A stretch of DNA of 32,000 nucleotides, from positions 1,110,001-1,142,000 of the forward strand of contig OY781039.1 in assembly GCA_963676105.1 (NCBI GenBank), read 5' to 3'. The stretch is from Erysipelotrichaceae bacterium. Its GTDB lineage: Bacteria > Bacillota_I > Bacilli_A > Erysipelotrichales > Erysipelotrichaceae. This document shows positions 10,988 to 28,729 of this stretch, piece after piece. The notes beneath the pieces were generated by a model that worked only from the letters and a program-made list of their open reading frames with translations, did not search any database and was not told the DNA's origin. The stretch's first letter is position 1. Every line of letters starts with the position of its first letter. The position numbers were made by a program, and so were the translations under genes.

Positions 10988-11000
10988 TAACTGTCCTCCT

Positions 11001-14545: not shown

Positions 14546-16231
14546 TTATTTCTCAATCCATAGGTATTCAAAGGCATCTAATTTTATAAGACCTTTCTGC
14601 CCACAAACAGAACCATCAATCTCTTGCGTTTCTGATGATAAGTTTTGTATAACCACCATCACATCATCTTTATAGCTTCGTATATAAGATAAGATATGAT
14701 TATTAGCCGTTCCATCAATATTTTTACATTGTATAAATTCTAAAGAACCTCTCGAGAAAGATGGATGAAGTGATCTTAATGATGTCATATCTTTAATCGC
14801 ATAATAGACTTGATAAGCTAAAGAAGTATTGTCTTTTAAGTCCTTTTCTATTTGATTCCAATCCATACGTCCTCGACCTAAATAACGAGAATCTTTATAA
14901 CCTGATAATTCAAACATTTCATTGTAATAATCTAAATCATTCTTCTTACCAATTTCATCACCATAATAAATGATTGGTGTACCAATTAAAGTAAACATAA
15001 TTGAGTAAGCTAATTTAATGCGTTTAACATCATGTTCAAATAAATCACTTAGACGTGCTGAGATTCCTTCACCCGTTCTAAAGTCCCATGATGGATCTTT
15101 CGCATAATAATTAAAGATGAATTTTCTTTCTTCAGGCGTCACCATTTCCAAAGTAAGTTCGTCATGACATCTTAAGAAACTAAACCACTGACATGACTCT
15201 GGTATTTCTGGCGTAAATGAAGGAGCCATAACCATTTCAATAGATGACTTATCTTCTTCAGCCAAAGCTTTAAAAATTCGAGGCATCACTGGAAAGTGAT
15301 ATGCCGCATTACATTCAGCTCCGCCCCCAAAGTATTCAACCACTTGTTCAGGTGGCTGACAAGCTTCTGCTAGCAGCAAGTTATCAGGACTTAGATAATC
15401 TAGAGTTGCCTTAAAGAATTGAACGATTAAATGGGTCTTAGGTAAATTCTCACAGATGGTGTTCTCTTCTTTCCAAAGATAAGGAACCGCATCCGCTCTA
15501 AAACCATCAACCCCTTGAATTTTCCAACCAATTAACATATTAGTCATGGCCATTAAAACATCGGGATTACGATAGTTCAAATCTGGTTGAATATCAAAGA
15601 AACGATGGAAAAAATATTGACCAGCCACATCATCCCATTGCCAATTACTATCCATCATACCTTTAAAGATAATACGGGCATCTTTATACCGATCTTGGGT
15701 ATCACTCCAAATAAAGTAATCACGATATCGATTATCTTTTGATGTACGCGCTTCTTTAAACCAATGATGTTCATTAGAACAGTGATTCATTGCCACATCA
15801 AAAATAACTTTTATTCCTTTTTCGTGTGCTTCATCAATAAAAGCTTTAAAGACTATGGCTTTACTTTTCTTATCCGCATCAGTATCTAGCCCTAATAAAT
15901 CAGCACGAACAGATTCATAATCTGAAATATCAAAGCCTGCGTCTTTCATCGGTGATTCAAGGATCGGTAGTAACCATAAACAATTGACACCCATGTTTTG
16001 AAGATAGTCTAGTTTTTCTTTTAAACCATTAAAATCTTTATTAAATAAATCTACATAAGTTGAATAAACAACCGCATCCTTATACCAATCATTTGTCCCA
16101 TTATTATCGTTCGAGAAATAATCACGTTTAATCTGTTCAACTTCTTCCACAAAAGCCTCAAGTTTGTCATGAGCTCCATTGTCTAAAAAATCGCCGTAGA
16201 TTTCGTTCCACAGTCTTTTTATATTTTTCAT
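14546..16231 (-). CDS. treS: GH13 alpha-amylase-family enzyme, trehalose synthase (maltose alpha-D-glucosyltransferase)-like
   Basis: 561 aa with GH13 conserved regions DVAMNH, GVDGFRADAVPYLW, LLLAEACQPPEQVVEYFG, FLRCHDELTLEMV and FHRFFDIQPDLNYRNPDV. These closely resemble TreS signatures. Confidence 0.65.
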   Translation of the reverse strand: MKNIKRLWNEIYGDFLDNGAHDKLEAFVEEVEQIKRDYFSNDNNGTNDWYKDAVVYSTYVDLFNKDFNGLKEKLDYLQNMGVNCLWLLPILESPMKDAGFDISDYESVRADLLGLDTDADKKSKAIVFKAFIDEAHEKGIKVIFDVAMNHCSNEHHWFKEARTSKDNRYRDYFIWSDTQDRYKDARIIFKGMMDSNWQWDDVAGQYFFHRFFDIQPDLNYRNPDVLMAMTNMLIGWKIQGVDGFRADAVPYLWKEENTICENLPKTHLIVQFFKATLDYLSPDNLLLAEACQPPEQVVEYFGGGAECNAAYHFPVMPRIFKALAEEDKSSIEMVMAPSFTPEIPESCQWFSFLRCHDELTLEMVTPEERKFIFNYYAKDPSWDFRTGEGISARLSDLFEHDVKRIKLAYSIMFTLIGTPIIYYGDEIGKKNDLDYYNEMFELSGYKDSRYLGRGRMDWNQIEKDLKDNTSLAYQVYYAIKDMTSLRSLHPSFSRGSLEFIQCKNIDGTANNHILSYIRSYKDDVMVVIQNLSSETQEIDGSVCGQKGLIKLDAFEYLWIEK

Positions 16232-16294
16232 AAGTAAATCCTCTATCTTTAATTATAAACCCGATAGTTATTCACTTATATGTGCTGTGTGCAC

Positions 16295-16321
16295 AAATCA
16301 AAATCCATCTTAAGATGGATT
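16295..16321 (-). terminator. Intrinsic terminator ending the DUF3737-patB-merR-maa-AKR unit
   Basis: AATCCATC-TTAA-GATGGATT hairpin (16302-16321) followed on the - strand by TTGATTT. Confidence 0.55.
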
Positions 16322-16324
16322 AAA

Positions 16325-17125
16325 TTAATACCAATTATATAATTGTCTATTTTGATCTAAAGCATTAATTCTCTTTAAATCATCTTCATTTAATTCAAAA
16401 TCAAATACAGTAATGTTTTCGATGAGTCTTTCTTTATGTTTAGACTTAGGAATGACCACAATATCATTTTGAATCATATATCTTAGTGCAACTTGCGCTG
16501 CTGACTTCTTATATTTTTGACCAATCTCAATGAGTACAGGTTCATTAAATAAATCTTTTTCCCCACTAGTGAAAGGTGCCCAAGCTTCTAAGATACAGTT
16601 ATTTACTTTTAATGTTTGATGGAGTTCTTTTTGTTGAAAGTAAACATGGGTTTCCATTTGATTAAGCATTGGTTTAATATTGACTTTTTGCGAGAAAGAT
16701 TTAAAGGTATCCTTCTTAAAATTAGAAACACCAATCGCTTTTACTTTACCACTCTCATATGCTTCTTCTAACGCTTTATACATTTCTACTGAGTTGCTAT
16801 AAACTTCATGAATTAGATACAAATCAATATAATCTACTTGTAGATTCTTTAAGGATAATTCAATGGCTTCTTTTGCTTTCTCATAACTATTAAACGGACT
16901 GTGCATTTTAGTACAGATAAATAATTCAGATCGTGGGATATCTGTTTGTCCTAAAACATTTCCTATCTCTTTTTCATTACTATACATGTGAGCTGTATCA
17001 ATAAGTCGATAGCCAAGTTCAAGAGCTTCTTCTACTACTCGCTCACATTCATTTCCTTTTAGATTCCAGGTTCCTAAACCTAAAATTGGCATTTGATGCC
17101 CATTATTTAAAGTGACAAATTCCAT
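16325..17125 (-). CDS. Aldo/keto reductase (AKR, 2,5-diketo-D-gluconate reductase-like)
   Basis: 266 aa with LGLGTW, IDTAHMYSNE (catalytic Tyr), TKM (Lys), YLIHE (His) and AIGVSNF motifs. Confidence 0.85.
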   Translation of the reverse strand: MEFVTLNNGHQMPILGLGTWNLKGNECERVVEEALELGYRLIDTAHMYSNEKEIGNVLGQTDIPRSELFICTKMHSPFNSYEKAKEAIELSLKNLQVDYIDLYLIHEVYSNSVEMYKALEEAYESGKVKAIGVSNFKKDTFKSFSQKVNIKPMLNQMETHVYFQQKELHQTLKVNNCILEAWAPFTSGEKDLFNEPVLIEIGQKYKKSAAQVALRYMIQNDIVVIPKSKHKERLIENITVFDFELNEDDLKRINALDQNRQLYNWY

Positions 17126-17126
17126 A

Positions 17127-17702
17127 TTAAGTATTGTCTACTTTCTTAATGAACTTAGCTGGAACACCGCCTACTATGGTATAACTTTCAACATCTTTGG
17201 TGACAACAGCTCCGGCAGCTACGACTGCCCAATCTCCAATTGAAACACCTTGAAGCACAACAACATTTGAACCAATCCAAACATTATTACCGATTGTTAT
17301 AGATGCATATGAATTCTTACGTTTTAGTTTTGGTTCAATCGCGTGATTTACCGTAGCAAGAACAACATTATGGCCAATAAGTGTTCCATCTCCAATACTA
17401 ATACCGCCTTGATCTTGAAAGTGACAGCTTGAATTAATAAAGACATTTTGTCCAATCTTCGTATTCTTTCCAAAATCAGTATAAAAAGGTGGAAATAATT
17501 TAAAACCCGAACCAATTTTTGATCCAGTTAATTCTTCCATTAGTGATTTTATTTCGTTTTCATCATGGTATTTATTATTCAATTCCATGGTAATTTTTTG
17601 AGCTTGAGTAAAAAGTTCTTTAGAATACTTCGATCTAAGTTCTTTTAACTCTTCAGGAATAACTTCATTTTTAAATCCTTTTAAAACAAGTTCTAAATCC
17701 AT
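17127..17702 (-). CDS. maa: Maltose/galactoside O-acetyltransferase-type hexapeptide-repeat acetyltransferase
   Basis: 191 aa with an N-terminal Mac-type helix region and left-handed beta-helix hexapeptide repeats ([44 protein letters not shown]). Confidence 0.7.
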
Positions 17703-17711
17703 AAAACCTCC

Positions 17712-18119
17712 TTATATTTGGTAATTCTTACTTTTCTTTTTATGGATATCACAAGTCCCTGCTTCTTTGGCTGTTTCGTAATACCATTTTTTATGATCAA
17801 GAGTAGCTAAGTGACCTTTGAGTTCTTCGATTTGTTGAAGAACAGATTCTCTTTGTTTAAGAATAATATTTAAGCGTTCATCAATACTATCATCACCAAC
17901 TAGCGTTAAATCAATAAAACGTTTGATTTCTTTGATTGGCATCCCTGTATTCTTTAAACATTCTATGATTCTTAATGCACCAATATCATCATTTTTAAAA
18001 ACTCGAATCCCACTCGCTTTACGTTCTACAAAAGGCATTAGCCCTTCTTTGTCATAATAACGTAGTGTCGATGCGCTTAAATTTAATACTTTAGCGACTT
18101 CACCAATTGTATATTCCAT
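17712..18119 (-). CDS. MerR-family transcriptional regulator (AdhR/NmlR-like, Cys54)
   Basis: 135 aa with N-terminal HTH YTIGEVAKVLNLSASTLRYYDKEGL, a coiled-coil dimerisation helix, and a single conserved-position Cys in IIECLKNTGMP. This aligns by eye with FIKCMRNAGLS (Cys52) of B. subtilis AdhR. Confidence 0.8.
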   Translation of the reverse strand: MEYTIGEVAKVLNLSASTLRYYDKEGLMPFVERKASGIRVFKNDDIGALRIIECLKNTGMPIKEIKRFIDLTLVGDDSIDERLNIILKQRESVLQQIEELKGHLATLDHKKWYYETAKEAGTCDIHKKKSKNYQI

Positions 18120-18121
18120 TT

Positions 18122-19300
18122 CTAGACATCCTCTCTTTCTTTATATAAATCAATCGATTTTTTTAATCTATTTAAACCATCCATCACTCTATCTCTATTA
18201 GTAGCGGCATTCATACGAATAAATGAAGATCCATTTCCACCATAGTGATTACCAGCTGAAATAATCAAACCTGTTTCTTCTCTTATAAATTCAGCTAATA
18301 CTTCGGCATCGACTTCTAATTTACTAATATCTATCCAAACTAAATATGTTGCGTGTGATTCAACAACTTTCAATAAAGGAATTTGCTCTTTTATAAAGTT
18401 ATAGATTATTTGTTTATTTTCTTGAAGATATATTCTTAATTCTTCTAACCAAGTTTCACCTTTAGTAAAAGCTGAAACTGTTGAATAGGCAGCAAATGCG
18501 TTTGGTTCAGCTACTTCATTGGAGTTTAAACCACGCTCCATAATTGCTTTAAGTTTTGGATTCGCGACAATCACAGCCGCTGATTGAAGTCCAGCTAAGT
18601 TAAACGTTTTACTTGCCGCAACACATGTCACACTATTAGTTAAACAATTATCTGATACTGAAGCGAAAGGTATATACTCATAACCTGGATCACATAAGTC
18701 ACAATGAATTTCATCAGAAAGAACTACAACATTGTGTTTAACACTCAAATCTCCAATTCTTTTCAAATCTTCTTTTGACCAAATATTACCACTTGGATTT
18801 TGTGGATTACAAAGAATCATTAGCCTGGTTGTATCTAGTGATAACTTTTCTTCTAAATCATCAAAATCTATAGAATAAGATGAACCATCATATTTGAGTT
18901 GATTTTCTAATACATGTCTTCCGTGATTTATAATTGAGTTATAGAAAACATTAAACGTTGGAGTTTGTATAAGAACATTATCCCCAACATTCGTTAATCT
19001 TTGAACAGCTGTTGTGATAGCTGCGACTACACCTGTTGAAAAAATCATCCAATCTTTTTCAAATTTAAACTGGTGTCTTTTTATCCACCAATTTTGAATA
19101 GATTCACTCCAATTCTCATTAATACTGGTATAACCAAAAACCCCATGCTCAACACGTTGTTTTAAATCTTCGATAATTTCAGGAGCCGTCTTAAAATCCA
19201 TATCAGCAACCCACATCGGAAGTTCATGTTCTTTAATATCCCACTTATATGAATCTGTGTTAAATCTATTTATTTTTTGGTCAAAATTGGTTTTAATCAT
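18122..19300 (-). CDS. patB: PLP-dependent C-S lyase (PatB/MalY-type cystathionine beta-lyase, aminotransferase class I/II fold)
   Basis: 392 aa with MalY/PatB-typical N-terminus (DRFNTDSYKWD-like NRFNTDSYKWD), PLP-lysine motif SKTFNLAGL, and ILCNPQNPSG. Confidence 0.7.
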   Translation of the reverse strand: MIKTNFDQKINRFNTDSYKWDIKEHELPMWVADMDFKTAPEIIEDLKQRVEHGVFGYTSINENWSESIQNWWIKRHQFKFEKDWMIFSTGVVAAITTAVQRLTNVGDNVLIQTPTFNVFYNSIINHGRHVLENQLKYDGSSYSIDFDDLEEKLSLDTTRLMILCNPQNPSGNIWSKEDLKRIGDLSVKHNVVVLSDEIHCDLCDPGYEYIPFASVSDNCLTNSVTCVAASKTFNLAGLQSAAVIVANPKLKAIMERGLNSNEVAEPNAFAAYSTVSAFTKGETWLEELRIYLQENKQIIYNFIKEQIPLLKVVESHATYLVWIDISKLEVDAEVLAEFIREETGLIISAGNHYGGNGSSFIRMNAATNRDRVMDGLNRLKKSIDLYKEREDV

Positions 19301-20136
19301 TTTCTTATCTTTATTATAGTATTTTCTTTTTGGACATCATCATTATCAAAAATAATTTCATTCACATCATCAACAATAATAGTACCAGAGATAGGATTTT
19401 TGATACTTTCAACAACGCCATGGATATCTGCTTCAACAGTTGAATATTCAAAGGCTAAATCAGTATGTACTAAAGTGCAATTTTCCAATTTAACATTTTC
19501 CATGTAACAGAAACCTTGATTACTTTCGATCGTACAGTTTTTAAAGCTTACATTCTTTGAATTCCAGCCAATATATTCACCTGAAATAATACTGTCTTCA
19601 ACGAGTACATTCTCACAGTTCCAAAAAGCATCTTTTGTAGCTAAACGAGAATTTTTAATAACGATATTCTTACATCCATCAAAAGCATAACTACCAGTCA
19701 CTGAAAAATGATTGGCTTCAATATTTTCTGAACCCATCGCAAAATACATACCATTGGCTGATACGTTTTCCATTTTTATATCTCGACAATTCCATAATGT
19801 TTCTTCAGCATTCGAAAATTGTACATTCTCTAAACTTATATTACTTGTACGTCTAAAACTCTTTGGTGCTTCAACACTTACATTTTTTAAACTGATATTA
19901 TCCGTATACCAAATGGCAGCTCTTGCGTTAATATTTAATATGCTGTCATCTAATGTAATGTTCTTTGCATACCAAAATGGATATTTCCATTCAAAAACAG
20001 ATTTTTCTACTTTTATATTTTTACTTTCTTTTAACGGTGACTCACCATCAAAGAATGTACTGTTTTTTATATCTAGATCCTGCGCTTGAAATAAAGCACG
20101 TTCACCTGTAAATTTCTTAAATTCTACACTTTTCAT
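19297..20136 (-). CDS. Parallel beta-helix repeat protein of unknown function (DUF3737-like)
   Basis: 279 aa with a repetitive N(I/V)x(L/V)xN(S/C/V) pattern throughout (NIKVEKS, NITLDDS, NISLKNV, NISLENV, IKMENV, NIVIKNS, NVLVEDS, NVSFKNC, NVKLENC). The N-terminus GERALF..DL..NS.F.DGESPLKE is as I recall for DUF3737. No catalytic motif recognised. Confidence 0.5.
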   Translation of the reverse strand: MKSVEFKKFTGERALFQAQDLDIKNSTFFDGESPLKESKNIKVEKSVFEWKYPFWYAKNITLDDSILNINARAAIWYTDNISLKNVSVEAPKSFRRTSNISLENVQFSNAEETLWNCRDIKMENVSANGMYFAMGSENIEANHFSVTGSYAFDGCKNIVIKNSRLATKDAFWNCENVLVEDSIISGEYIGWNSKNVSFKNCTIESNQGFCYMENVKLENCTLVHTDLAFEYSTVEADIHGVVESIKNPISGTIIVDDVNEIIFDNDDVQKENTIIKIRK

Positions 20137-20163
20137 TTATTATTTCTCCTATACAATACATAT

Positions 20164-20194
20164 ATACTACAACTTAGAGTTAACTTTAAGTCAA
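20164..20194 (-). promoter_or_regulatory. MerR-type promoter P1 (19-bp spacer with dyad operator)
   Basis: On the - strand: TTGACT (20194-20189), spacer TAAAGTTAACTCTAAGTTG (19 nt), TAGTAT (20169-20164). The dyad CTTAGAGTTAACTTTAAG lies at 20173-20190. Confidence 0.7.
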
Positions 20195-20204
20195 GCATAA
20201 TTAT

Positions 20205-20237
20205 TAAATAAATAAGAACCGCTTATCTCAGCGGTTC
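20205..20237 (-). terminator. Intrinsic terminator ending the merR-bicupin-AKR unit
   Basis: GAACCGC-TTATCTCA-GCGGTTC hairpin (20216-20237) followed on the - strand by TTATTTATTT. Confidence 0.7.
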
Positions 20238-20250
20238 AAACTCATTATTT

Positions 20251-21153
20251 TTAACGACGACCAAAGATCATCTTAAGTATGGCCATTGGGGTTAATTTAC
20301 CACCATAGACTGGCATGAAACTTGCATTACCATAATCTTTAATCTTTTCAACATTCTTTAATGTTTCCATATCTTTTTCAGAAATTTCGAAATCAATATC
20401 AGCATTTGATGCCATATGTTTCGGATTAACCGTTTTAGGAAGTGGCAAACACCCTAGTTGAAGATCATATCGAATGCTAAGTTGAGGAACAGATACTTTA
20501 TATTTATTAGCCATTTCTGTTACTACTTCATTCTTCATCAACTCACCATGTGCAATTGGTGAATAAGCTTCAACCAAGATATCTAGAGATTGGCAATACT
20601 CAATAATATCAAATGGTGTATTACTAATATGAGCTAGAACTTGGTTAACTGCAGGTTTCACTTTTGAATTATTAACAATATTATCAATATCTTCTTTATT
20701 GAAGTTAGAAACACCAATTGCTTTAATCTTTCCTGCTTCATATGCTTCTTCTAAAGCTTTCCAAGCTTCTAAATTGCCTTCAAAGTAGCGATTAGTATCT
20801 CCAAACTTATTCCAAGGTTGTGGACTATGAATAATCATCATATCAATATAATCGACACCTAATTTCGCGAGTGATCCTTCAATCGCTTTCTTTGCTTTTG
20901 CATATGTTTTATGTTGTGCGCCTAATTTTGTTGTGATAAAGATTTCTTCACGTTTAATTCCAGATGCTTTAATTCCTTCACTAACACCAACTTCATTGCC
21001 ATAAGCTTGTGCTGTGTCAATATGTCTGTATCCTGCTTTGATAGCTGCTGCAACTGCGGCACCAGTGTCTTTATTTGAAATCATCCATGTACCAAAACCG
21101 AGTTTTGGAATTTCTACACCGTTATTAAGTTTAAAAGTTTCATTTAAAATCAT
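20251..21153 (-). CDS. Aldo/keto reductase (AKR)
   Basis: 300 aa with LGFGTW, IDTAQAYGNE, TTKL, MIIHSP and AIGVSNF motifs. SD GGAGGA upstream. Paralogue of the 23164-24018 gene. Confidence 0.85.
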   Translation of the reverse strand: MILNETFKLNNGVEIPKLGFGTWMISNKDTGAAVAAAIKAGYRHIDTAQAYGNEVGVSEGIKASGIKREEIFITTKLGAQHKTYAKAKKAIEGSLAKLGVDYIDMMIIHSPQPWNKFGDTNRYFEGNLEAWKALEEAYEAGKIKAIGVSNFNKEDIDNIVNNSKVKPAVNQVLAHISNTPFDIIEYCQSLDILVEAYSPIAHGELMKNEVVTEMANKYKVSVPQLSIRYDLQLGCLPLPKTVNPKHMASNADIDFEISEKDMETLKNVEKIKDYGNASFMPVYGGKLTPMAILKMIFGRR

Positions 21154-21166
21154 ATTTTATTCCTCC

Positions 21167-22084
21167 TTATGATCCTAATTTTTGATAGTCTTCTTCACTA
21201 ATGAAACTTGACCATTCGTTTTTCTTATCTTCACCTGGTAGCTCAATCGTAATATGTGAGAACCAGTTATCTTTGGCAGCTCCATGCCAGTGGCTGACAT
21301 TAGCTGGAATATTAACAATTGACCCTTCTTTTAAGGCAATAGCTTCTTTACCCTCTTCTTGATACCAACCTTCACCAGCTGTACAAATTAAGATTTGACC
21401 ACTTCCTTTTGAAGATTTATGAGTATGGAAACTATTCACACATCCAGGTTCAAATGTAACGTTTGCTAAGAACAATGGAGTTTTGCCTGGTCTTGTAATC
21501 ATTTTTAAATATGATTTTTTTGTAAATTGTTTACGTAGGAAAATGTTGTACATTCCTGATTTAAACATATTAGATTGATCAAATTCTTTCTTAGATTTGA
21601 ATTTATATTCTGCATCTTTTTTAACAAATTTCTGTGGTTTATTAGAATCTTTTAGCTGGTTATAATAAGTATCACTTACTGGTTCTAACCATTCCGCTTT
21701 CGATTCGACACCCGGTAATTCTAATGATAAATGAGCGAACCAAGAATCTTTTTTAGCCCCATGCCAATGTTTAACACCTGATGGGATATAAACAAATGAT
21801 CCTTCTTTTAATTCTTCAGCAGCTTGTCCTTCTTGTTGGAACCAACCTTCACCTGCTGTACAAATTAGCATCTGACCTCCACCACTTTTTGCGTGGTGGA
21901 TATGCCAGTTATTTCTACATCCTGGTTCGAATGTAACATTCGCTATAAATACAGGCCACTCGCCTGGTTTAGCAAACATACTTAAATACGATTTACCAAT
22001 AAAATATTTTTCGAACATGGTATTTTCCATACCTGTTTTGAACATATTTACTTTTTCAAATGCTTCTCTAGTCTGATATTTCAT
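21167..22084 (-). CDS. Bicupin protein (two tandem cupin_2-type domains), function unknown
   Basis: 305 aa. The two halves align by eye at roughly 55% identity (NVTFEPGCRNNWHIHHAKSGGGQMLICTAGEGW.. versus NVTFEPGCVNSFHTHKSSKGSGQILICTAGEGW..; ..HWHGAKKDSWFAHLSLELPG versus ..HWHGAAKDNWFSHITIELPG). SD AGAGGAAG upstream. Confidence 0.75.
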   Translation of the reverse strand: MKYQTREAFEKVNMFKTGMENTMFEKYFIGKSYLSMFAKPGEWPVFIANVTFEPGCRNNWHIHHAKSGGGQMLICTAGEGWFQQEGQAAEELKEGSFVYIPSGVKHWHGAKKDSWFAHLSLELPGVESKAEWLEPVSDTYYNQLKDSNKPQKFVKKDAEYKFKSKKEFDQSNMFKSGMYNIFLRKQFTKKSYLKMITRPGKTPLFLANVTFEPGCVNSFHTHKSSKGSGQILICTAGEGWYQEEGKEAIALKEGSIVNIPANVSHWHGAAKDNWFSHITIELPGEDKKNEWSSFISEEDYQKLGS

Positions 22085-22508
22085 TTTTTTCTTCCTCTTT
22101 GCGCTTAATTAATTCACGCGCACTATCTCTTAATTGTTTTTCGGCATCACTAGTTAGCGCTGATTGATTAAATTCAATAATGCTATCAAGTTCTTTCATT
22201 GATTCTTCAATTTCCTGTCGTCTTTTAACTAAGTTTTCTTTTTGAGTCAACAACATTTTCTGACGATCTTCAAGTGTGATTTCACCTTCCATAAACAAAT
22301 TTATATACTGTTTAATTTCTTGAATTTGCATGCCTGCTCTTTTAAAAATTTGAATGAACTTTAATGTTTCAATCTCGTAATCATAAAAGATTCGATATCC
22401 AGATTCACGTCGCTCTAAATTAGGTAGTAATCCTTCTTTATCGTAATAGCGTATTGTGGCTGTTGTTATGCCTAACATCTTTGCAACTTGGTTAATTGTA
22501 TAACTCAT
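22068..22508 (-). CDS. MerR-family transcriptional regulator (second paralogue, no Cys)
   Basis: HTH YTINQVAKMLGITTATIRYYDKEGL. I place the start at ATG 22508 (SD AAAGGTGG 5 nt upstream). The track start at 22538 lies at or upstream of the predicted TSS of promoter P2. The 3' end overlaps the bicupin start by 17 nt. Confidence 0.8.
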   Translation of the reverse strand: MSYTINQVAKMLGITTATIRYYDKEGLLPNLERRESGYRIFYDYEIETLKFIQIFKRAGMQIQEIKQYINLFMEGEITLEDRQKMLLTQKENLVKRRQEIEESMKELDSIIEFNQSALTSDAEKQLRDSARELIKRKEEEKNEISD

Positions 22509-22539
22509 TTCGACCACCTTTCTCTGATATCTACTCAAA

Positions 22540-22570
22540 CTATAACCTTAAAGTTAACTTTAAAGTCAAG
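22540..22570 (-). promoter_or_regulatory. MerR-type promoter P2 (19-bp spacer with dyad operator)
   Basis: On the - strand: TTGACT (22570-22565), spacer TTAAAGTTAACTTTAAGGT (19 nt), TATAGT (22545-22540). A perfect 16-nt palindrome TTAAAGTTAACTTTAA lies at 22549-22564. Confidence 0.7.
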
Positions 22571-22591
22571 TCTGTAATGCTTCATTTTAAT

Positions 22592-22630
22592 AAAAACAGA
22601 GCAGTAACTTTAGTAAGTTAACTGCTCTGA
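22592..22630 (-). terminator. Intrinsic terminator ending the AKR-lipoprotein unit
   Basis: Long hairpin CAGAGCAGT(T)AACTT-ACTA-AAGTTACTGCTCTG (22598-22630, one bulged nt) followed on the - strand by TTTTTA. Confidence 0.75.
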
Positions 22631-22667
22631 TCTTCTACTCTACAAAAAATTCTTTTCATCCTTGATT

Positions 22668-23210
22668 TTATTTAAGAGATAAAGTGGCTCTGACATTACC
22701 ACTGCCAAGTATATTAATCAATTCAGTTTTAGATACGTCATTGATTTTTCCTAATCGCGTAAAACTCCAACTGTTTGTATCATAGTAAATAACAAACGCA
22801 TTCCCTTGATACAAAATCAAATCACCTGCATCTGTTGAAATCTGTTCATCATTAGTTGGTAAGTTTTGTGGAAACATACCAACTTTTTCCATGCTTCCAT
22901 AATCTCGCATATCAATCACAATATCATCTTCTTTCAGCAGCTCAATAAGTGCTGCTGTTGAAGAGTTGTCAACAAGTGTCGCCGTTAAATCATGGTCGTT
23001 CACATTTATATTTATTTGCATATCTACTTCCTCAATGTCTTTTACAATTTTATCTTCTTCATTATACTCAACTTCATTTATTTCAGAGCTTTCAGCAGGT
23101 TCAACAACTGAACACGCTGAGAGCACTAAGCCAAGAAACATTGAAACTAATATTTTGTTCAACTTATTTTGTATAAACAGGGAAGAAAGAGAATTCACCA
23201 TAGTCTTCAA
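22668..23210 (-). CDS. Lipoprotein with cyclophilin-like (Cyclophil_like2-type) domain
   Basis: Signal peptide ending in lipobox LVLSAC. The C-terminal domain has the pattern LTATLVDNSSTAALIELL...DMRDYG..EK.G..P..LPT........AGDLILYQGNAFVIYY....SFTRLGKI. The track start at 23210 is TTG, and ATG 23201 is an alternative. Either way it overlaps the upstream AKR by 38-47 nt. Confidence 0.6.
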   Translation of the reverse strand: MKTMVNSLSSLFIQNKLNKILVSMFLGLVLSACSVVEPAESSEINEVEYNEEDKIVKDIEEVDMQININVNDHDLTATLVDNSSTAALIELLKEDDIVIDMRDYGSMEKVGMFPQNLPTNDEQISTDAGDLILYQGNAFVIYYDTNSWSFTRLGKINDVSKTELINILGSGNVRATLSLK

Positions 23211-24018
23211 TTTCTTTCATCTCTTTTAAAGTTGTCATATCTTCATCACTAATCACAAAATCTACATCAGCATTACTCTTCATGTGAGCAGGATTTGCTG
23301 TCTTAGGTAATGTGATTAAGCCTAATTGAAGATCATAACGAATACACAATTGAGGAATGGAAACTCCATATTTCTCAGACATTACTTTTATAGCTTCATT
23401 TTTGAATAATTCACCGTGTCCAATTGGAGAATAAGCTTCTACTGCAATACCTTCCTTGTTACAGAAATCAATAAGTTCTGCTGGTGTATTGCTAATATGC
23501 GCTAAAACTTGGTTAACCATAGGTTTAACTTCACAGTTGTTAATAAGATTTTCTAGATCTTCTTGTAAGAAATTTGACACACCAATGGCTTTTATTTTGC
23601 CGGCTTTATAAGCTTCTTCTAACGCTTTCCAAGCCGCTACATTACCTTCAAAGTAACGATCTTCATTTCCATATTCTGCCCATGGTTTTGGTGAATGGAT
23701 AATCATTAAATCAATATATCCACAATCTAATTTTTCAAGTGAACCTTCAATTAGTTTAACCGCTGTTTCATAATCTTTAGCTTCTGCAGCTAATTTTGTG
23801 ACGATAAACAAATCTTCACGTTTAGCACCACTTGCTTTAATACCTTTACCAACACCCACTTCATTTCCATAAGCTTGTGCTGTATCAATATGTGTGTAGC
23901 CTAGTTTTATGGCTTCAACTACAGCTGTGTCAACCACCGCATCGTCAATCATCCATGTCCCTAAACCCAATTGTGGAATTTCAATACCATTACTTAACTT
24001 TACTTTTTCGTTATACAT
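23164..24018 (-). CDS. Aldo/keto reductase (AKR)
   Basis: 284 aa with LGLGTW, IDTAQAYGNE, VTKL, MIIHSP and AIGVSNF motifs. About two-thirds identical by eye to the 20251-21153 product. Confidence 0.85.
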   Translation of the reverse strand: MYNEKVKLSNGIEIPQLGLGTWMIDDAVVDTAVVEAIKLGYTHIDTAQAYGNEVGVGKGIKASGAKREDLFIVTKLAAEAKDYETAVKLIEGSLEKLDCGYIDLMIIHSPKPWAEYGNEDRYFEGNVAAWKALEEAYKAGKIKAIGVSNFLQEDLENLINNCEVKPMVNQVLAHISNTPAELIDFCNKEGIAVEAYSPIGHGELFKNEAIKVMSEKYGVSIPQLCIRYDLQLGLITLPKTANPAHMKSNADVDFVISDEDMTTLKEMKEIEDYGEFSFFPVYTK

Positions 24019-24046
24019 TTACATACTCCTTTTCTTGTATAATAGT

Positions 24047-24077
24047 ATTCTAAGACTTAAAGTCAACTTTAAGTCAA
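24047..24077 (-). promoter_or_regulatory. MerR-type promoter P3 (19-bp spacer with dyad operator)
   Basis: On the - strand: TTGACT (24077-24072), spacer TAAAGTTGACTTTAAGTCT (19 nt), TAGAAT (24052-24047). Inverted repeat GACTTAAAG-TCAA-CTTTAAGTC at 24054-24075 with perfect 9-bp arms. Confidence 0.7.
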
Positions 24078-24091
24078 GAAAAAAGATTTGC

Positions 24092-24122
24092 TTGACTTAG
24101 AGTTTACTTCAGATAGTATTAT
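24092..24122 (+). promoter_or_regulatory. MerR-type promoter P4 (19-bp spacer, half-conserved operator), divergent from P3
   Basis: TTGACT (24092-24097), spacer TAGAGTTTACTTCAGATAG (19 nt), TATTAT (24117-24122). The -35-proximal half-site ACTTAGAGTT is conserved and the distal half is degenerate. The SD AAGGAG and the MATE start follow. Confidence 0.6.
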
Positions 24123-24151
24123 GTAGATTGTTTTTATAAAAGGAGATTTAC

Positions 24152-25477
24152 ATGTTTTCAAATAAAGCATTAAGAAATTTAGTCGTACCATTGTTTGTTG
24201 ATCAACTCTTACTAATTGTTGTCACATTCTTATCATCGCTCATGATTGCACAAGCTGGTGCTAATGCACTTTCAGGTGTTTCTCTAGTCGATATGATGAA
24301 TACATTTTTATTTTTTGTTTTTACAGCCTTAGCATCTGGTGGTTCTGTTGTTATATCTCAATTTATTGGAAGTAATAACAATGATATGGCTGAACACTCA
24401 GCTGCACAGCTTTTTAGTTTCAATATCGTAATATCTATCTCAATATCAATTGTGTTGATTATATTTAGAGGACCTATTATTAATTTATTATTTGGACAAG
24501 CTGAGTTAGACGTTATTAATACAGCGTCTCTTTATTTCTTCTTATCTGTTTTTTCTTATCCATTCTTTTCACTTTATCAATCTGGAAATGCAATTTTCAG
24601 AGCTATTGGGAAAACTAAAATCCCAATGGCAAGTTCGATCTTAATGAATTTTATGACATTCTTTGGTAATGCATTAAGTATCTATGTGTTTAATGCAGGT
24701 GTCTTCGGTTTCGGTATTTCTGCCATTTTTGGTCGCTTCTTAGCTTCAATGTTAGTCTTTGTTTTAGCACTTAGAGGAAGTGATGATTTTAGAATTCAAG
24801 TAAAGCATATCTTTGAGTTCCATAAAGATATCATTAAGAAAATTATATCAATTGCCGTGCCTAACGGAGTTGAAAATGGTGTATTAAGTTTTGGTCGTTT
24901 GCTACTTGCAAGTTTATTAGCAGGTTTTGGTACAACACAAATTGCCGCGAATGGTGTTGTTAACTCATTGGTTCCAATTGCAGTTTCGTTTGGTTTGGCC
25001 ATGAACTATGTCATGGTTACTGTTGTAGGACAAGTTGTTGGTGCTGGCGATTATGATCAAGCTCGTTTCTACATAAAAAAATTATTAAAATGGACCTACA
25101 TTGTTAATGGTATCCTTATATTGATTCATACCTTATCACTACCTTTTATTTTAGATTTATATAATTTATCTGATGAAATATCTACCATTGCATATCGACT
25201 CATTCTTCTACACAATATAGCCGCATTAACGCTTTGGCCATTAGCGATGGTTGTACCAAATGCGCTAAGAGCTGCTGGCGATGCGAAGTTTACAATGTAT
25301 GTCTCAATCATCGCAATGGTTGTTTTCAGAATCGGAACAACATACATCCTATCAATTGGATTTGGCTTAGGTGTTTATGGTATTTGGATTGCAATGATTG
25401 TCGACTGGCTATCGCGTGTAGCCTTTAACTTATATCGATATTATTCAAATAAGTGGACTCAATTTAGATTAGTTTAA
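24152..25477 (+). CDS. MATE-family multidrug/toxic-compound efflux transporter
   Basis: 441 aa with 12 predicted TM helices and MATE-typical N-terminus (LRNLVVPLFVDQLLLIVV) and bilobed repeat. Confidence 0.8.
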   Translation: MFSNKALRNLVVPLFVDQLLLIVVTFLSSLMIAQAGANALSGVSLVDMMNTFLFFVFTALASGGSVVISQFIGSNNNDMAEHSAAQLFSFNIVISISISIVLIIFRGPIINLLFGQAELDVINTASLYFFLSVFSYPFFSLYQSGNAIFRAIGKTKIPMASSILMNFMTFFGNALSIYVFNAGVFGFGISAIFGRFLASMLVFVLALRGSDDFRIQVKHIFEFHKDIIKKIISIAVPNGVENGVLSFGRLLLASLLAGFGTTQIAANGVVNSLVPIAVSFGLAMNYVMVTVVGQVVGAGDYDQARFYIKKLLKWTYIVNGILILIHTLSLPFILDLYNLSDEISTIAYRLILLHNIAALTLWPLAMVVPNALRAAGDAKFTMYVSIIAMVVFRIGTTYILSIGFGLGVYGIWIAMIVDWLSRVAFNLYRYYSNKWTQFRLV

Positions 25478-25489
25478 ATTATGTAAAAA

Positions 25490-25519
25490 CCCAACAATTT
25501 TGATAAATTGCTGGGTTTT
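25490..25519. terminator. Bidirectional intrinsic terminator (MATE gene / CMD gene)
   Basis: CCCAACAATTT-TGAT-AAATTGCTGGG (10 of 11 pairs) flanked by an A-run (25485-25489) and a T-run (25516-25519). It lies between convergent stops. Confidence 0.75.
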
Positions 25520-25528
25520 CTTTAGGTT

Positions 25529-26239
25529 CTAATCCTTCTTAGCTTCCGTTACTTTTGTGATGACAGCCATAGCATTTAAACTACGTGGATAGCCAATATA
25601 AGGTAAGCATTGAGAAACAACCTTGATTAAGGTTTCCTTATCATTACCCATCATTAAGTTACCTGCAGTGTGCGATGTTAATTGACTTTCGCATCCACCC
25701 TGTGCTGCAAGATAGCAGAAAGTAATCATTTCTCTCTGTTTAAGATCTAAACCATTACGCGTGTAGTAATCGCCAAAACAATTAGCTGCTAACCAGCGAT
25801 TAATATGACCACCTTTATAAAATTCCTTCATTTGAGGACCAAATATTTTAGCTTGTGCATCTGCCCCAGCCAATAGTCTTGTTTCCGTATCAGTAGTCGT
25901 TTGATCTTCTAAAGGTAATTTAATACCTTTTGAGATCATGACTTCATTAGTTGCGACAAGAAAAGGATGAACTCTTCCCATGCCTAAATAATCAACCGCT
26001 TGATAAACCACTTCTTTTGCCTGTACTGGTGTTAGAGCGCCATTTAACGCTTGATCTAATTGAATTTTAAATTCATCTAATCCTTGACACCCTAGTAAGC
26101 TTGCTAGTATTGCGAGATATCTGGTTTCATCATCTAGTTGAAATCCTTCTTCATTAATCACTTCATCTAAGCTGAATGCTTCATGTCTTTCAACAAATTC
26201 AGGATCTGTTACGTACAACTCTTTGTATAATTTAGTCAT
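25529..26239 (-). CDS. Carboxymuconolactone decarboxylase (CMD/AhpD-like) family protein
   Basis: 236 aa with two CMD-like helical repeats. The second carries the family Cys/His motif (AAQGGCESQLTSHTAGNL). Confidence 0.7.
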   Translation of the reverse strand: MTKLYKELYVTDPEFVERHEAFSLDEVINEEGFQLDDETRYLAILASLLGCQGLDEFKIQLDQALNGALTPVQAKEVVYQAVDYLGMGRVHPFLVATNEVMISKGIKLPLEDQTTTDTETRLLAGADAQAKIFGPQMKEFYKGGHINRWLAANCFGDYYTRNGLDLKQREMITFCYLAAQGGCESQLTSHTAGNLMMGNDKETLIKVVSQCLPYIGYPRSLNAMAVITKVTEAKKD

Positions 26240-26268
26240 TTTTTATTACTCCTTATGTTCTAAATTAA

Positions 26269-26299
26269 ATTATAGACCTTAAAGTTAACTCTAAGTAAA
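26269..26299 (-). promoter_or_regulatory. MerR-type promoter P5 (19-bp spacer with dyad operator)
   Basis: On the - strand: TTTACT (26299-26294), spacer TAGAGTTAACTTTAAGGTC (19 nt), TATAAT (26274-26269). The dyad CTTAAAGTTAACTCTAAG lies at 26278-26295. Confidence 0.65.
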
Positions 26300-26325
26300 G
26301 TGTATTTTAAAAATGTTCTAAGAAT

Positions 26326-26360
26326 TAAAAAATGAGCAAAGAATTTAACTAAGCTCATTT
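26326..26360 (-). terminator. Intrinsic terminator of the enoate reductase gene
   Basis: AATGAGC...GCTCATT 7-bp stem (26331-26359, 15-nt loop) followed on the - strand by TTTTTTAATT. Confidence 0.5.
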
Positions 26361-26372
26361 TGATAATACGAT

Positions 26373-28289
26373 TTAAATGCTTAAAGCAAGTTTGCTAGCT
26401 TCGTAGATTGCAATCTTAGCATCTGATGCTTTTTTAGCATCACCTATAGAATACGTCTCATTGAATAGTGTATTAGCCGTTTCAAGAAGTGGATTATAGC
26501 TTCTTGAACCGATCGCTAAAGCTATAAGATCAAATCCACTTAGTTCTCCAATACCATTAGGATTTTCATATTTTATCCCATCTTCAACAAATTCAAGAAC
26601 TTTTGTTTCTGGATAAAAATTAACATCGTGCTCAGCCAAAGTGTTTAAAAGGATTTTTCTTGCTGGCTTTGCAAGTAAAGGAGCCATCTCTTTGATCATG
26701 TCAACGATACTTACATCATTGTTAAATTCACTTAAAAATTCAGCTGTTTCACATCCAACAAGCCCTGCTCCTACAACAAGAACTTTCTTGTTTCCTACAA
26801 CAAATTTGCCATCTAGGATATCATTTGCTTTATAAACATTTTCATTATCGATCCCTTTGATTGGAGGAATCACAGGTGCAGATCCTGTCGCAAGAATACA
26901 AATATCAGATTTATACTTTTCTAAGACTTCTGGATTTACTTCGACACCTCTAAGAATTTCAACATTATGTTTTTTTGCTAATACTTCATAGGTGTGAATC
27001 GCACGTGATAAATCATGTTTCATTGGCGGAACGCTTGCTAATCTAAGTTGACCACCAAGTTTATCATCTTTTTCAAGTACAGTTACTTTATGACCCTTTT
27101 TACCTAATATCCAGGCTGCTTGTAATCCTGCAGGTCCAGCGCCAACAATCGTAACTGATTTTTTAGTTTTTGCTTCTTCAATAAGCCACTCATCTTCTTT
27201 ACCACTGAATGGATTGATCATGCATGATACACCTATTTCAGAGTCTTCGCTCTTTTGCCCGTATATACATCTTTGTAGACACGCCATACAGTGAAAGATT
27301 TCATCGATTTTGTTCTCTTTAACCTTATTTGGGAAATTAGAATCACAAATAGATTGACGACCCAGTGCTACAAAATCAGCATCACCTGATGCAATAATGC
27401 TCTCTGCAATTGCAGGATCATTAATTCGTCCTACAGAAATTACAGGAATACTGACAGCTTGTTTAACTTGTTTTGCATTTTTAGTATTGTATCCAGGTTG
27501 TGCATAATAGGATTGTATTGGAGCTCCATACGATACATGAATTGCGTCAGCGCCAGCTTTTTCATATAAAATTGATTGAGCAATTGTATCTATTATCGAA
27601 TTCCCATAGGGTGATTCTTCAACTCCACTAACTCGAATTACTACTGGATAATCATTACCACATTTCTCTTTGATACTTTTAATGACTTCAGTCGCAAATT
27701 TTGCTCGTGCACTTACATTTCCACCAAAATCATCTGTTCTTTTGTTAAAGTATTTTGACAAGAACTGTGCTATGAGATATCCATGAGCACCATGAACTTC
27801 GACACCATCAAATCCAGCTTCTTTAGCTCTGACAGCCGCATCAGAGAATTTTCCTATGAGATCCCAAACTTCTTGTGTCGTCAACTCATGAACATTCTCC
27901 AGTTTATTTTTTGCAGGTATTGATGAAGCCCCAACTGGTGTAGATTTTGTCACTTTAGTATTTGCTTGATTTCCAGCATGATGTAATTGCGCAAAAATCA
28001 AAGTATCGTATTTATGAATTCGATCAGTTAAACCTTTTAGATTCGGTATAAACGAATCATTATAAATTCCAACTTCGGTATCTGATGCAAGGCCTTCTTC
28101 GCTTATACACATGAATTCAGTGAAAATCAATCCGAAACCACCTTTTGCCCGAGCTTCGAAATAACTATATGAATGTTCAGAAAATAAGTGTTCTAATGTT
28201 GCAGATCCGCTGTGCATAGCTGGGACAACAAATCGATTCTTAATAGTTAAATTACCAATATTCTTAGGTGTAAACAATTGATTAAACAT
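26373..28289 (-). CDS. Fe-S flavoenzyme of the 2-enoate / 2,4-dienoyl-CoA reductase family (OYE TIM barrel + 4Fe-4S + FAD/NAD(P) domain)
   Basis: OYE-like N-terminus FTPKNIGNLTIKNRFVVPAMHS, cluster motif CMACLQRC...C, and two dinucleotide folds (VTIVGAGPAGLQAA, VLVVGAGLVGCETAE). I place the start at ATG 28289 (SD AGGAGG at 28294-28299). The 20-codon extension in the track (to 28349) lies in a repeat region with no SD. Confidence 0.8.
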   Translation of the reverse strand: MFNQLFTPKNIGNLTIKNRFVVPAMHSGSATLEHLFSEHSYSYFEARAKGGFGLIFTEFMCISEEGLASDTEVGIYNDSFIPNLKGLTDRIHKYDTLIFAQLHHAGNQANTKVTKSTPVGASSIPAKNKLENVHELTTQEVWDLIGKFSDAAVRAKEAGFDGVEVHGAHGYLIAQFLSKYFNKRTDDFGGNVSARAKFATEVIKSIKEKCGNDYPVVIRVSGVEESPYGNSIIDTIAQSILYEKAGADAIHVSYGAPIQSYYAQPGYNTKNAKQVKQAVSIPVISVGRINDPAIAESIIASGDADFVALGRQSICDSNFPNKVKENKIDEIFHCMACLQRCIYGQKSEDSEIGVSCMINPFSGKEDEWLIEEAKTKKSVTIVGAGPAGLQAAWILGKKGHKVTVLEKDDKLGGQLRLASVPPMKHDLSRAIHTYEVLAKKHNVEILRGVEVNPEVLEKYKSDICILATGSAPVIPPIKGIDNENVYKANDILDGKFVVGNKKVLVVGAGLVGCETAEFLSEFNNDVSIVDMIKEMAPLLAKPARKILLNTLAEHDVNFYPETKVLEFVEDGIKYENPNGIGELSGFDLIALAIGSRSYNPLLETANTLFNETYSIGDAKKASDAKIAIYEASKLALSI

Positions 28290-28302
28290 AACGCCTCCTA
28301 TA

Positions 28303-28343
28303 TAATCGCTTTTTATAGATATTATTAATCGCCTTTTATAGAT
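28303..28343. repeat. Two 18-bp direct repeats (period 23 bp) immediately upstream of the enoate reductase SD
   Basis: 28303-28320 TAATCGCTTTTTATAGAT and 28326-28343 TAATCGCCTTTTATAGAT, 17/18 identical. The proximal copy ends 3 nt from the SD on the - strand. Confidence 0.7.
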
Positions 28344-28368
28344 TATCATATAATTTAATGTTTGCCCA

Positions 28369-28402
28369 TAAAAAAATGCTTATTACTTTGAATAATAAAC
28401 AT
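28369..28402 (-). terminator. Intrinsic terminator of the ArsR-family gene
   Basis: On the - strand, AUGUUUAUUAU-UCAAA-GUAAUAAGCAU (11 bp including 2 G-U pairs) is followed by TTTTTTTAT. Confidence 0.6.
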
Positions 28403-28414
28403 TTCTAAAATCAT

Positions 28415-28729
28415 TTATATTAATTCTTCGTCAATCCAAGATGATATTTGTTTTATGGTAGACTCTTTTCTTCTAAAGTAAGTATATTGTCTTATATATT
28501 TTGACTCTACTAAATCAGCATCTTCTAGTATTGATAGAAACTTAGATATGGTTGATTGACTTAAACCAGCCTTCTTTTTTATCGCACCTAAACAAACTCC
28601 GTTACTAAAATCATCATCATCTAAAAGATGAATTTGTCGTTCAAAATTTTCTTCAGGATTCTTCATCCACAATAGTATATTTAATCTAGTTTCATTTCCA
28701 AGTGCTTTAAAAATTTTTAATGGATCCAT
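28415..28729 (-). CDS. ArsR/SmtB-family winged-helix transcriptional regulator
   Basis: 104 aa with ALGNETRLNILLWM and the HTH LSQSTISKFLSILEDADLV. No obvious metal-binding Cys pairs. Confidence 0.75.
   Translation of the reverse strand: MDPLKIFKALGNETRLNILLWMKNPEENFERQIHLLDDDDFSNGVCLGAIKKKAGLSQSTISKFLSILEDADLVESKYIRQYTYFRRKESTIKQISSWIDEELI

Follow-up and report, generated by a model that had tools for sequence, protein, structure and literature searches.

The 32,000-bp stretch of DNA analyzed here, referred to below as the window and numbered from its first base, belongs to an Erysipelotrichaceae bacterium (assembly GCA_963676105.1, contig OY781039.1, positions 1,110,001 to 1,142,000). It contains a cluster of 12 genes in five units (U1 to U5) headed by five promoters (P1 to P5), and two of the genes encode regulators of the MerR family, designated MerR-A and MerR-B. 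The promoters carry a common type of dyad, and the cluster is considered here as a predicted MerR-type regulon.

Promoters and gene units

The promoters were read directly in positions 16000-26600 of the window and were found again with the regular expression TTGACT/TTTACT-N19-TAnnnT. In the list below, register 0 means that the first base of the dyad core is also the final base of the -35 element.

P1, 20164-20194 (-): TTGACT-TAAAGTTAACTCTAAGTTG-TAGTAT; dyad ACTTAAAGT-TA-ACTCTAAGT; register 0; heads U1
P2, 22539-22569 (-): TTGACT-TTAAAGTTAACTTTAAGGT-TATAGT; perfect 16-nt palindrome TTAAAGTTAACTTTAA; register +1; heads U2
P3, 24047-24077 (-): TTGACT-TAAAGTTGACTTTAAGTCT-TAGAAT; perfect 10-bp arms GACTTAAAGT/ACTTTAAGTC; register 0; heads U3
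P4, 24092-24122 (+): TTGACT-TAGAGTTTACTTCAGATAG-TATTAT; degenerate dyad; register 0; heads U4; back-to-back with P3
P5, 26269-26299 (-): TTTACT-TAGAGTTAACTTTAAGGTC-TATAAT; dyad ACTTAGAGT-TA-ACTTTAAGG; register 0; heads U5

All five promoters named in a preliminary description of this DNA were thus present, its coordinates for P2 (22540-22570) being one base too high. The spacer was an over-long 19 bp in 5/5 promoters, and by direct reading the -10 element ended 27-30 nt ahead of the start codon in every case. Within the spacer of these sigma-70-type promoters lies a 7-2-7 dyad, TTAAAGT-NN-ACTTTAA, and the -35 element covers only the outer 3 bp of its left arm; the promoters are unidirectional. 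The MerR-type architecture that had been proposed was borne out by the 19-bp spacer, by the overlap of the dyad with the -35 element, and by the presence in the cluster of two regulators of the MerR family.

The finer description of the dyads required some correction. The perfect 9-bp arms reported for P3 were found, extending to 10 bp when the flanking G/C is counted, and the perfect 16-nt palindrome of P2 was seen with its 1-nt shift, which corresponds to the +1 register. P4 had been said to keep only the -35-proximal half of the dyad; its left arm is indeed intact, but the right arm is weak rather than absent, with 6/9 bases matching. One dyad had also been taken to be shared by all promoters. 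The half-site is the same throughout, but P2 sits in the +1 register, as is usual for the MerR-B clade (see below). The constant GTTAAC centre was not sustained, as P3 has GTTGAC and P4 has GTTTAC; the centre is the variable part of the site, presumably with no protein contact.

A search with the 20-nt dyad pattern ACTTARAGTTAACTYTAAGT, allowing up to 3 mismatches, gave 4 matches compared with 0.01 expected from dinucleotide shuffles, and an unbiased repeat search of the window retrieved the same dyad family with no prior pattern (D5, D7, D9, I1-I4, and I9). A second TTGACT arises from the central G of the P3 dyad and stands 16 bp from a TATTAT (24039-24066, (-)); this nested hexamer pair is a possible regulator-independent promoter, and the base concerned is T in L004, a metagenome contig that is 96.6% identical to the window.

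The genes and terminators of the five units are as follows.

U1 gene 1, 19297..20136 (-): DUF3737 beta-helix protein; Pfam PF12541, E=6e-121
U1 gene 2, 18122..19300 (-): PatB-family C-S lyase, pyridoxal phosphate dependent; NCBIfam TIGR04350, 406 bits against a cut-off of 340
U1 gene 3, 17712..18119 (-): MerR-A, NmlR-like; Ser17, Arg20, Tyr21, Lys24, Cys54, Cys123
U1 gene 4, 17127..17702 (-): hexapeptide-repeat O-acetyltransferase; resembles maltose and galactoside acetyltransferases
U1 gene 5, 16325..17125 (-): aldo-keto reductase (AKR) AKR1; family library match
U1 terminator, 16302..16321 (-): hairpin then T-tract; scan and folding
U2 gene 1, 22068..22508 (-): MerR-B, NmlR-like; no cysteine (Ile54); distinct C-terminal tail
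U2 gene 2, 21167..22084 (-): bicupin; 17-nt overlap with the merR-B stop codon region
U2 gene 3, 20251..21153 (-): aldo-keto reductase AKR2
U2 terminator, 20216..20237 (-): hairpin then T-tract; folding at -18.8 kcal/mol, z=-6.2
U3 gene 1, 23164..24018 (-): aldo-keto reductase AKR3, AKR2 paralogue; repeat family D1
U3 gene 2, 22668..23141 (-): Cyclophil_like2 lipoprotein, lipobox LVLSAC; likely ATG at 23141, the mechanical open reading frame extending to 23210
U3 terminator, 22597..22629 (-): hairpin then UUUUU; folding
U4 gene, 24152..25477 (+): MATE-family exporter
U4/U5 terminator, 25486..25519 (no strand assigned): bidirectional hairpin common to the convergent units; both strands folded
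U5 gene, 25529..26239 (-): carboxymuconolactone decarboxylase (CMD)/AhpD-like protein of the CMD family

The layout of 12 genes in five units agrees with that first proposed, and every gene call was backed by Pfam and NCBIfam. The same is true of the two units said to carry their own MerR regulator, which by Pfam are U1 with MerR-A and U2 with MerR-B, and of the hairpin and T-tract terminators, which were recovered by scanning and folding; four hairpins close the five units, with one between U4 and U5. Over 300 nt (20600-20899 and 23468-23767, at a constant offset of 2868 bp), the genes for AKR2 and AKR3 are 74% identical in nucleotide sequence, and their paralogy is consistent with growth of the cluster by local duplication. 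Overlaps of 17 nt between merR-B and the bicupin gene (22068-22084) and of 4 nt between the DUF3737 and PatB lyase genes (19297-19300) suggest translational coupling in U2 and U1. Rfam gave no match to an RNA family in the window, and a riboswitch or leader was thereby ruled out.

Conservation of regulators and operator

MerR-A and MerR-B, of 135 and 146 amino acids, are 38% identical to each other. Both were assigned by Pfam to the MerR family (MerR_1, MerR, and MerR-DNA-bind), and both are short, with neither a C-terminal CX7-8C metal loop nor a ligand-binding domain. The best NCBIfam model for both was NmlR (NF041849), at 90.0 and 94.1 bits, which is under the cut-off of 175. The closest solved structures were those of Haemophilus influenzae NmlR (HiNmlR; 5D8C, E=5e-31) and Bacillus thuringiensis 3GPV, and identity to HiNmlR was 47% over 122 residues for MerR-A and 35% for MerR-B.

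The only cysteines of MerR-A are Cys54 and Cys123, while MerR-B has none and carries Ile at position 54. Cys54 of MerR-A aligns to Cys54 of HiNmlR, which is needed for the formaldehyde response and is equivalent to Cys52 of Bacillus subtilis AdhR (PMC5001606, PMC4776306). The electrophile/carbonyl function suggested in the preliminary description therefore fits, with MerR-A falling in the NmlR/AdhR branch and retaining the sensor Cys54. The DNA-reading residues of HiNmlR are Tyr17, Arg20, Phe21, and Lys24; their counterparts are Ser17, Arg20, Tyr21, and Lys24 in MerR-A and Ala17, Arg20, Tyr21, and Lys24 in MerR-B.

More than 2000 homologues of MerR-A were detected, with hundreds at 60-67% identity across Clostridia. 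For comparison of loci, a profile scan of metagenome contigs was used, in which at least 586 relatives were found; 80 loci were fetched, with regulators 52-65% identical to MerR-A. Among these 80 relatives, Arg20, Lys24, and Cys54 were invariant, and Ser17 was present in 75. A C-terminal WYYETAKEAGTCxxH tail like that of MerR-A, with Cys123 and His126, was found in 36/76 aligned relatives (alignment A1, loci L012-L091), the others having no such cysteine. The tail may serve as another sensor element in addition to Cys54.

The dyad core TTARAGTNNACTYTAA (TTAAAGT-NN-ACTTTAA), scored at no more than 2 mismatches, occurred in 55/80 of the loci, compared with 7-12/80 in shuffles. It lay inside TTGACT-N19-TAnnnT, in the register seen in the window, in 46/80 loci, and by our own count from the tabulated sites, 42 of those 46 were on the strand opposite to merR, 18-118 bp upstream of it. 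The occurrence of the dyad upstream of orthologous genes elsewhere, on which the preliminary description had staked its interpretation, was thus found, both for the core and for its promoter register. The operator and core gene set, of which the preliminary description knew no earlier account, are not peculiar to this locus: a conserved merR/AKR-cupin-CMD-flavodoxin unit is widespread in Firmicutes of gut, sediment, and bioreactor origin. No experimental description of this unit was found in a literature search, in which curated regulon databases such as RegPrecise were not covered, and nothing relevant came from literature searches on the operator motif, on DUF3737, or on MerR in combination with AKR, cupin, CMD, and flavodoxin; a paper on 4-HNE in Listeria names MerR only among its references.

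Two loci illustrate the conservation. In Desulfosporosinus orientis DSM 765 (L008), the neighbour of merR is headed by TTGACTTAAAGTTAACTTTAAGTTGTAGTAT, which differs from P1 in one spacer base; the operon that it drives encodes a hydrolase and a Cyclophil_like2 protein. An AKR-cupin-CMD-flavodoxin operon is driven by TTGACTTAAAGTTTACTTTAAGTAGTAGAAT in a Ruminococcus bromii-like metagenome-assembled genome, so called from the name given to a near-identical regulator sequence. The downstream operons of the fetched loci encode AKRs that are 57-67% identical to AKR2 and AKR3, together with Flavodoxin_4, FMN_red, Fe-ADH, flavin reductase, and RibD_C-type proteins. The cupins in these operons are single, are 44-65% identical to the bicupin halves, and are among the most conserved regulon members; other members are CMD, dienelactone-hydrolase-type, DUF362, hexapeptide acetyltransferase (58%), Cyclophil_like2, and MATE proteins.

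A position weight matrix (PWM) was built from 36 distinct foreign sites only, with the consensus TTGACTTAAAGTTAACTTTAAGTTGTATAAT. Applied to the 32-kb window at a threshold of 8 bits, it returned exactly the five claimed sites and no others. The scores were 30.2 for P3, 27.6 for P1, 24.9 for P5, 18.3 for P2 (out of register), and 14.8 for P4.

The relatives also linked regulator to operator, since residue 17 covaried with the fifth base from the dyad centre. Ser17 was accompanied by A in 34/34 distinct sites. The non-Ser17 exceptions (5/80) were Tyr17 in L046, L049, and L060 and His17 in L032 and L067, and these were exactly the loci with TAGAGT or GAGAGT in place of TAAAGT, giving G at the fifth base. 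The covariation agrees with two published contacts of HiNmlR, Tyr17-Cyt5 and Lys24-Gua5', and with the HiNmlR operator rule YYNGAGNNNNCTCNRR, in which the 4-bp centre is uncontacted. The operators of L004 differ from those of the window only at central bases (G to T in P3 and T to C in P4), which fits a centre that is untouched by protein, as in HiNmlR. By sequence comparison, the operator cognate to the MerR-A clade is this conserved dyad, TTAAAGT-NN-ACTTTAA.

Register and the two regulators

In the window and the fetched loci, 61 dyad promoters were collected. The spacer was 19 bp in all of them, none having 17, 18, or 20 bp, and the register was 0 in 57 and +1 in 4. The clade of MerR-B is marked by Ser-Gly-Tyr-Arg in the wing, and register +1 was observed in 6/6 of its loci with a visible site, namely, P2 of the window, L095, Weissella koreensis (L006), Aminipila luticellarii (L092), L097, and L005. 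The L095 promoter, TTGACTTTAAAGTTAACTTTAGGGTTATAAT, lies beside a MerR-B-clade regulator and differs from P2 at 2/31 bases. L005 encodes the closest relative of MerR-B (51% identical), which also has no Cys54 and also lies beside a bicupin gene; there the half-site is CTCGAGT and residue 17 is Asn. No recognizable site was found at L100, which has a MerR-B-clade regulator, and a single-protein query of genome contigs with MerR-B gave only three distant loci (L001-L003), all with no dyad.

Because the +1 register is typical of the MerR-B clade, P2 was assigned to MerR-B and P1, P3, P4, and P5 were assigned to MerR-A. The assignment is tentative, and we would place it slightly below an even chance: MerR-A would serve its four promoters, including that of its own operon, and MerR-B would serve P2, and with it its own operon, in response to a different, non-thiol signal.

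Several observations speak against this division and the regulon model in which it stands. The argument from register is based on 6 loci only. MerR-A and MerR-B have Arg20, Tyr21, Lys24, and the half-site in common, so that cross-binding is possible. A GAG-type half-site (TTAGAGT or ACTCTAA) is present, one each, in P1, P4, and P5, amounting to 3/5 window sites, and it is rare among foreign sites with Ser17 regulators; a left-arm G at the GAG position was seen in 2/36 distinct foreign sites, both beside His17 regulators. The GAG half-sites of P1, P4, and P5 may reflect tuning of site strength or a second regulator (Ala17). Finally, in L007, where MerR-A is 90% identical and residues 9-49 are identical to those of the window protein, the U1 promoter (L007:1021-1051, the P1 homologue) keeps the -35 element, the N19 spacer, and the leader, but the two arms of its dyad have altered symmetrically, giving CTTGGACTTAAGTCCAAG. 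This suggests that the promoter has been taken over by another paralogue, and it follows that an operon-encoded regulator is not necessarily the controller of that operon's promoter.

A less likely arrangement is that the two paralogues, reading the same half-site TTAAAGT, are insulated by phasing alone, in which case each may bind both kinds of site and activate only its own. If true, the cysteine-free MerR-B would imply a sensing mode that is not yet known in the NmlR/AdhR branch. Somewhat more doubtful again is a single pool of operators, in which MerR-A and MerR-B would bind all five sites as homodimers and possibly heterodimers and the shift of P2 would be meaningless. The P2 half-site is identical in sequence to those of the other sites, as a common pool would predict, and both proteins combine Arg20, Tyr21, and Lys24 with a small residue 17. 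The register, however, is strictly split by clade across 63 promoters counted in other organisms, with 57 in register 0 and the MerR-B clade 6/6 in +1; according to a published survey, members of one MerR subfamily keep a single spacing between the centre of the site and the -35 element (PMC5045206); and the low identity between MerR-A and MerR-B makes heterodimers less likely. Within such a pool, MerR-B, with its sensor cysteine missing, could be a competitor or damper that is blind to the signal, or could supply a second input, for the cluster as a whole, a role that appears equally doubtful.

Mechanism, related systems, and setting

The locus is quite probably a clustered NmlR/AdhR-like MerR regulon with a predicted response to electrophiles and carbonyls. 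A regulator dimer bound at the dyad, between the two promoter hexamers and on the DNA face opposite RNA polymerase, would keep the misaligned N19 promoter quiet. Once modified, the regulator would underwind and kink the DNA, so that the -35 and -10 elements become aligned and transcription is switched on. The steps of dimer binding, poor alignment, and underwinding follow the MerR/NmlR mechanism (PMC5001606, PMC9909328). The most likely trigger for MerR-A would be covalent modification or oxidation of Cys54, possibly with Cys123, by reactive carbonyls, quinones, and similar electrophiles; three things point to this inducer class, namely, that Cys54 is invariant, that the regulon is rich in reductases, and that there is a parallel in AdhR, which controls the CMD gene yraC. 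Of the products, the three aldo-keto reductases would reduce carbonyls and the MATE protein would export the compound, while the cupin, CMD protein, C-S lyase, acetyltransferase, DUF3737 protein, and cyclophilin-like lipoprotein would process related compounds or conjugates.

This interpretation has points to answer. The inducer is predicted from homology and gene content only. AT-rich hits of the PWM reach about 22 bits in shuffled sequence. The score of P4, taken alone, is within the reach of chance, and P4 also contains an alternative ordinary promoter, TTGACT-N16-TAGTAT, so that it may be constitutive or weakly regulated. Three features nevertheless support the P4 site: it is in exact register, it lies 29 nt ahead of the start codon of the MATE gene, and it is conserved in L004.

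An improbable alternative to the electrophile-responsive regulon is dedicated biotransformation of one dietary or plant compound, such as an aldehyde-releasing cyanogenic, glucosinolate-type, or S-conjugated metabolite, with the regulator induced by reversible ligand binding. Against the (R)-mandelonitrile lyase model of NCBIfam, the bicupin exceeded the cut-off of 140 bits with a score of 196, though only as the sum of its two domains; a defined substrate is suggested by the PatB C-S lyase, the acetyltransferase, the MATE exporter, and the surface lipoprotein; and the complete lack of cysteine in MerR-B would also be in keeping with such a role. Set against this, the conserved core elsewhere consists of generic NAD(P)H-dependent carbonyl/quinone reductases with a make-up that varies by genome, the 80/80 conservation of Cys54 among MerR-A relatives is what is seen in the thiol-sensing NmlR and AdhR, and the regulators are short, with no separate ligand-binding domain. 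The idea that the dyads arose by chance as AT-rich palindromes, or serve as simple repressor operators, with an incidental 19-bp spacing and no activation by DNA distortion, draws on the AT-rich genome (about 33% GC) and the high PWM scores of shuffled sequence but is close to refuted by the 4 full dyads against 0.01 expected, the exact 19-bp spacer in 61/61 dyad promoters, the fixed position relative to the -35 element, and the covariation of residue 17 with the operator base.

Among characterized systems, the electrophile-responsive regulon proposed here invites comparison with HiNmlR (HI_0186; PDB 5D8C, 5D90, and 5E01). Both have a short MerR protein with no separate sensor domain, a conserved Cys54, Arg20, Lys24, and an aromatic residue 21, and a role in carbonyl/electrophile stress, which for the window cluster is predicted from homology and gene content. 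The 16-bp operator layout of the rule YYNGAGNNNNCTCNRR, with its uncontacted 4-bp centre, is also common to both; the window sites fit the layout and 14/16 positions, whereas position 5, G/C in the rule, is A/T in most half-sites. The differences begin at residue 17, which is Tyr in HiNmlR, Ser in MerR-A, and Ala in MerR-B, and at the operator base, where the window has A and HiNmlR has G (TTAAAGT against YYNGAG). Cys71 is missing in MerR-A, and many members of the MerR-A clade have the extra Cys123-x-x-His tail. The targets are adhC-estD in H. influenzae and AKRs, cupin, CMD, and MATE in the window, and no adhC, adhA, or estD homologue was found in the cluster. The -35 elements of the HiNmlR system lie at the centre of the inverted repeat, in overlapping divergent promoters, whereas those of the window lie only at the dyad edge, and the window regulators are encoded inside their target operons rather than divergently.

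AdhR (YraB) of B. subtilis is a MerR-family activator that depends on Cys52/54, responds to formaldehyde and methylglyoxal, and controls adhA-yraA and yraC; the CMD-family yraC has a counterpart in the CMD gene of U5 (PMC4776306). Its regulon comprises three genes at two promoters, in contrast to the five clustered promoters of the window, which has no thiol-dependent alcohol dehydrogenase. The window system is predicted to work like NmlR/AdhR but is not an orthologue; it is part of a large conserved sister clade. An assignment as NmlR orthologue is excluded by the failed NCBIfam cut-off, the absence of adhC-estD, the other placement of the -35 element, and the other base 5 of the half-site.

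A further likeness is to the merR/AKR-cupin-CMD-flavodoxin unit of Clostridia and Lactobacillales, as in D. orientis DSM 765, the R. bromii-like genome, and Limosilactobacillus mucosae. The regulator clade (52-67% identity), the consensus TTGACTTAAAGTNNACTTTAAGTTGTAnAAT, the N19 spacer, the register, and the enzyme families are all common to it and the window. It differs in having one or two promoters per locus, normally divergent from merR, and the window adds a cysteine-free paralogue, DUF3737, and the PatB lyase.

The E. coli SoxR operator at soxS likewise combines a spacer of 19 bp with a dyad that has GTTAAC at its centre. A SoxR-like reading of the window was rejected, as both regulators lack the [2Fe-2S] cysteine cluster and the SoxR model TIGR01950 gave 28 and 33 bits, far under its cut-off of 116.9. 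The resemblance in GTTAAC is coincidental, since the centre is variable (GTTGAC and GTTTAC in the window, and GTTCAC in L004).

The cluster had also been described as an island. In the sense of foreign DNA this was not upheld, as GC content is uniform across the window and U1 in L007 adjoins the same amylase and polyamine genes. In the window, these are a polyamine cluster at 8676-14157 (Orn/Lys/Arg decarboxylase, spermidine-synthase-like, agmatinase/arginase-like, saccharopine-dehydrogenase-like, and Orn/DAP/Arg decarboxylase) and, after it, an alpha-amylase-family gene at 14546-16231; the order in L007 is identical. On the other side, beside P5, positions 26373-28729 encode an Old-Yellow-Enzyme/pyridine-nucleotide-disulphide oxidoreductase fusion (658 amino acids) and a small ArsR/HTH_5 regulator, with no dyad. 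A similar fused oxidoreductase is found near the MerR-B relative in L005. These genes may constitute a second, independently regulated detoxification unit.

The five dyad promoters of the window lie within 6.1 kb, and in none of the other loci examined were more than two found in about 12 kb. MerR-A and MerR-B are both encoded inside target operons, from which positive autoregulation would follow, whereas the usual layout elsewhere is divergent from merR. The clustering of five promoters and two paralogues is the only unusual feature of the locus.

The mechanism itself is textbook MerR biology, and the general surprise is modest. For the subfamily, the analysis defines the operator, the specificity-determining residue 17, and a core regulon of NAD(P)H-dependent carbonyl/quinone reductases, cupin, CMD, and flavodoxin-type proteins. 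As a model, the window offers five promoters of graded operator quality and two paralogues within 10 kb, so that cross-talk and register could be tested on one DNA fragment. The subfamily, into which the locus provides a clean, testable way, is common in gut and environmental Firmicutes, and the regulon is a plausible means for gut anaerobes to handle reactive aldehydes and quinones of dietary or host origin.

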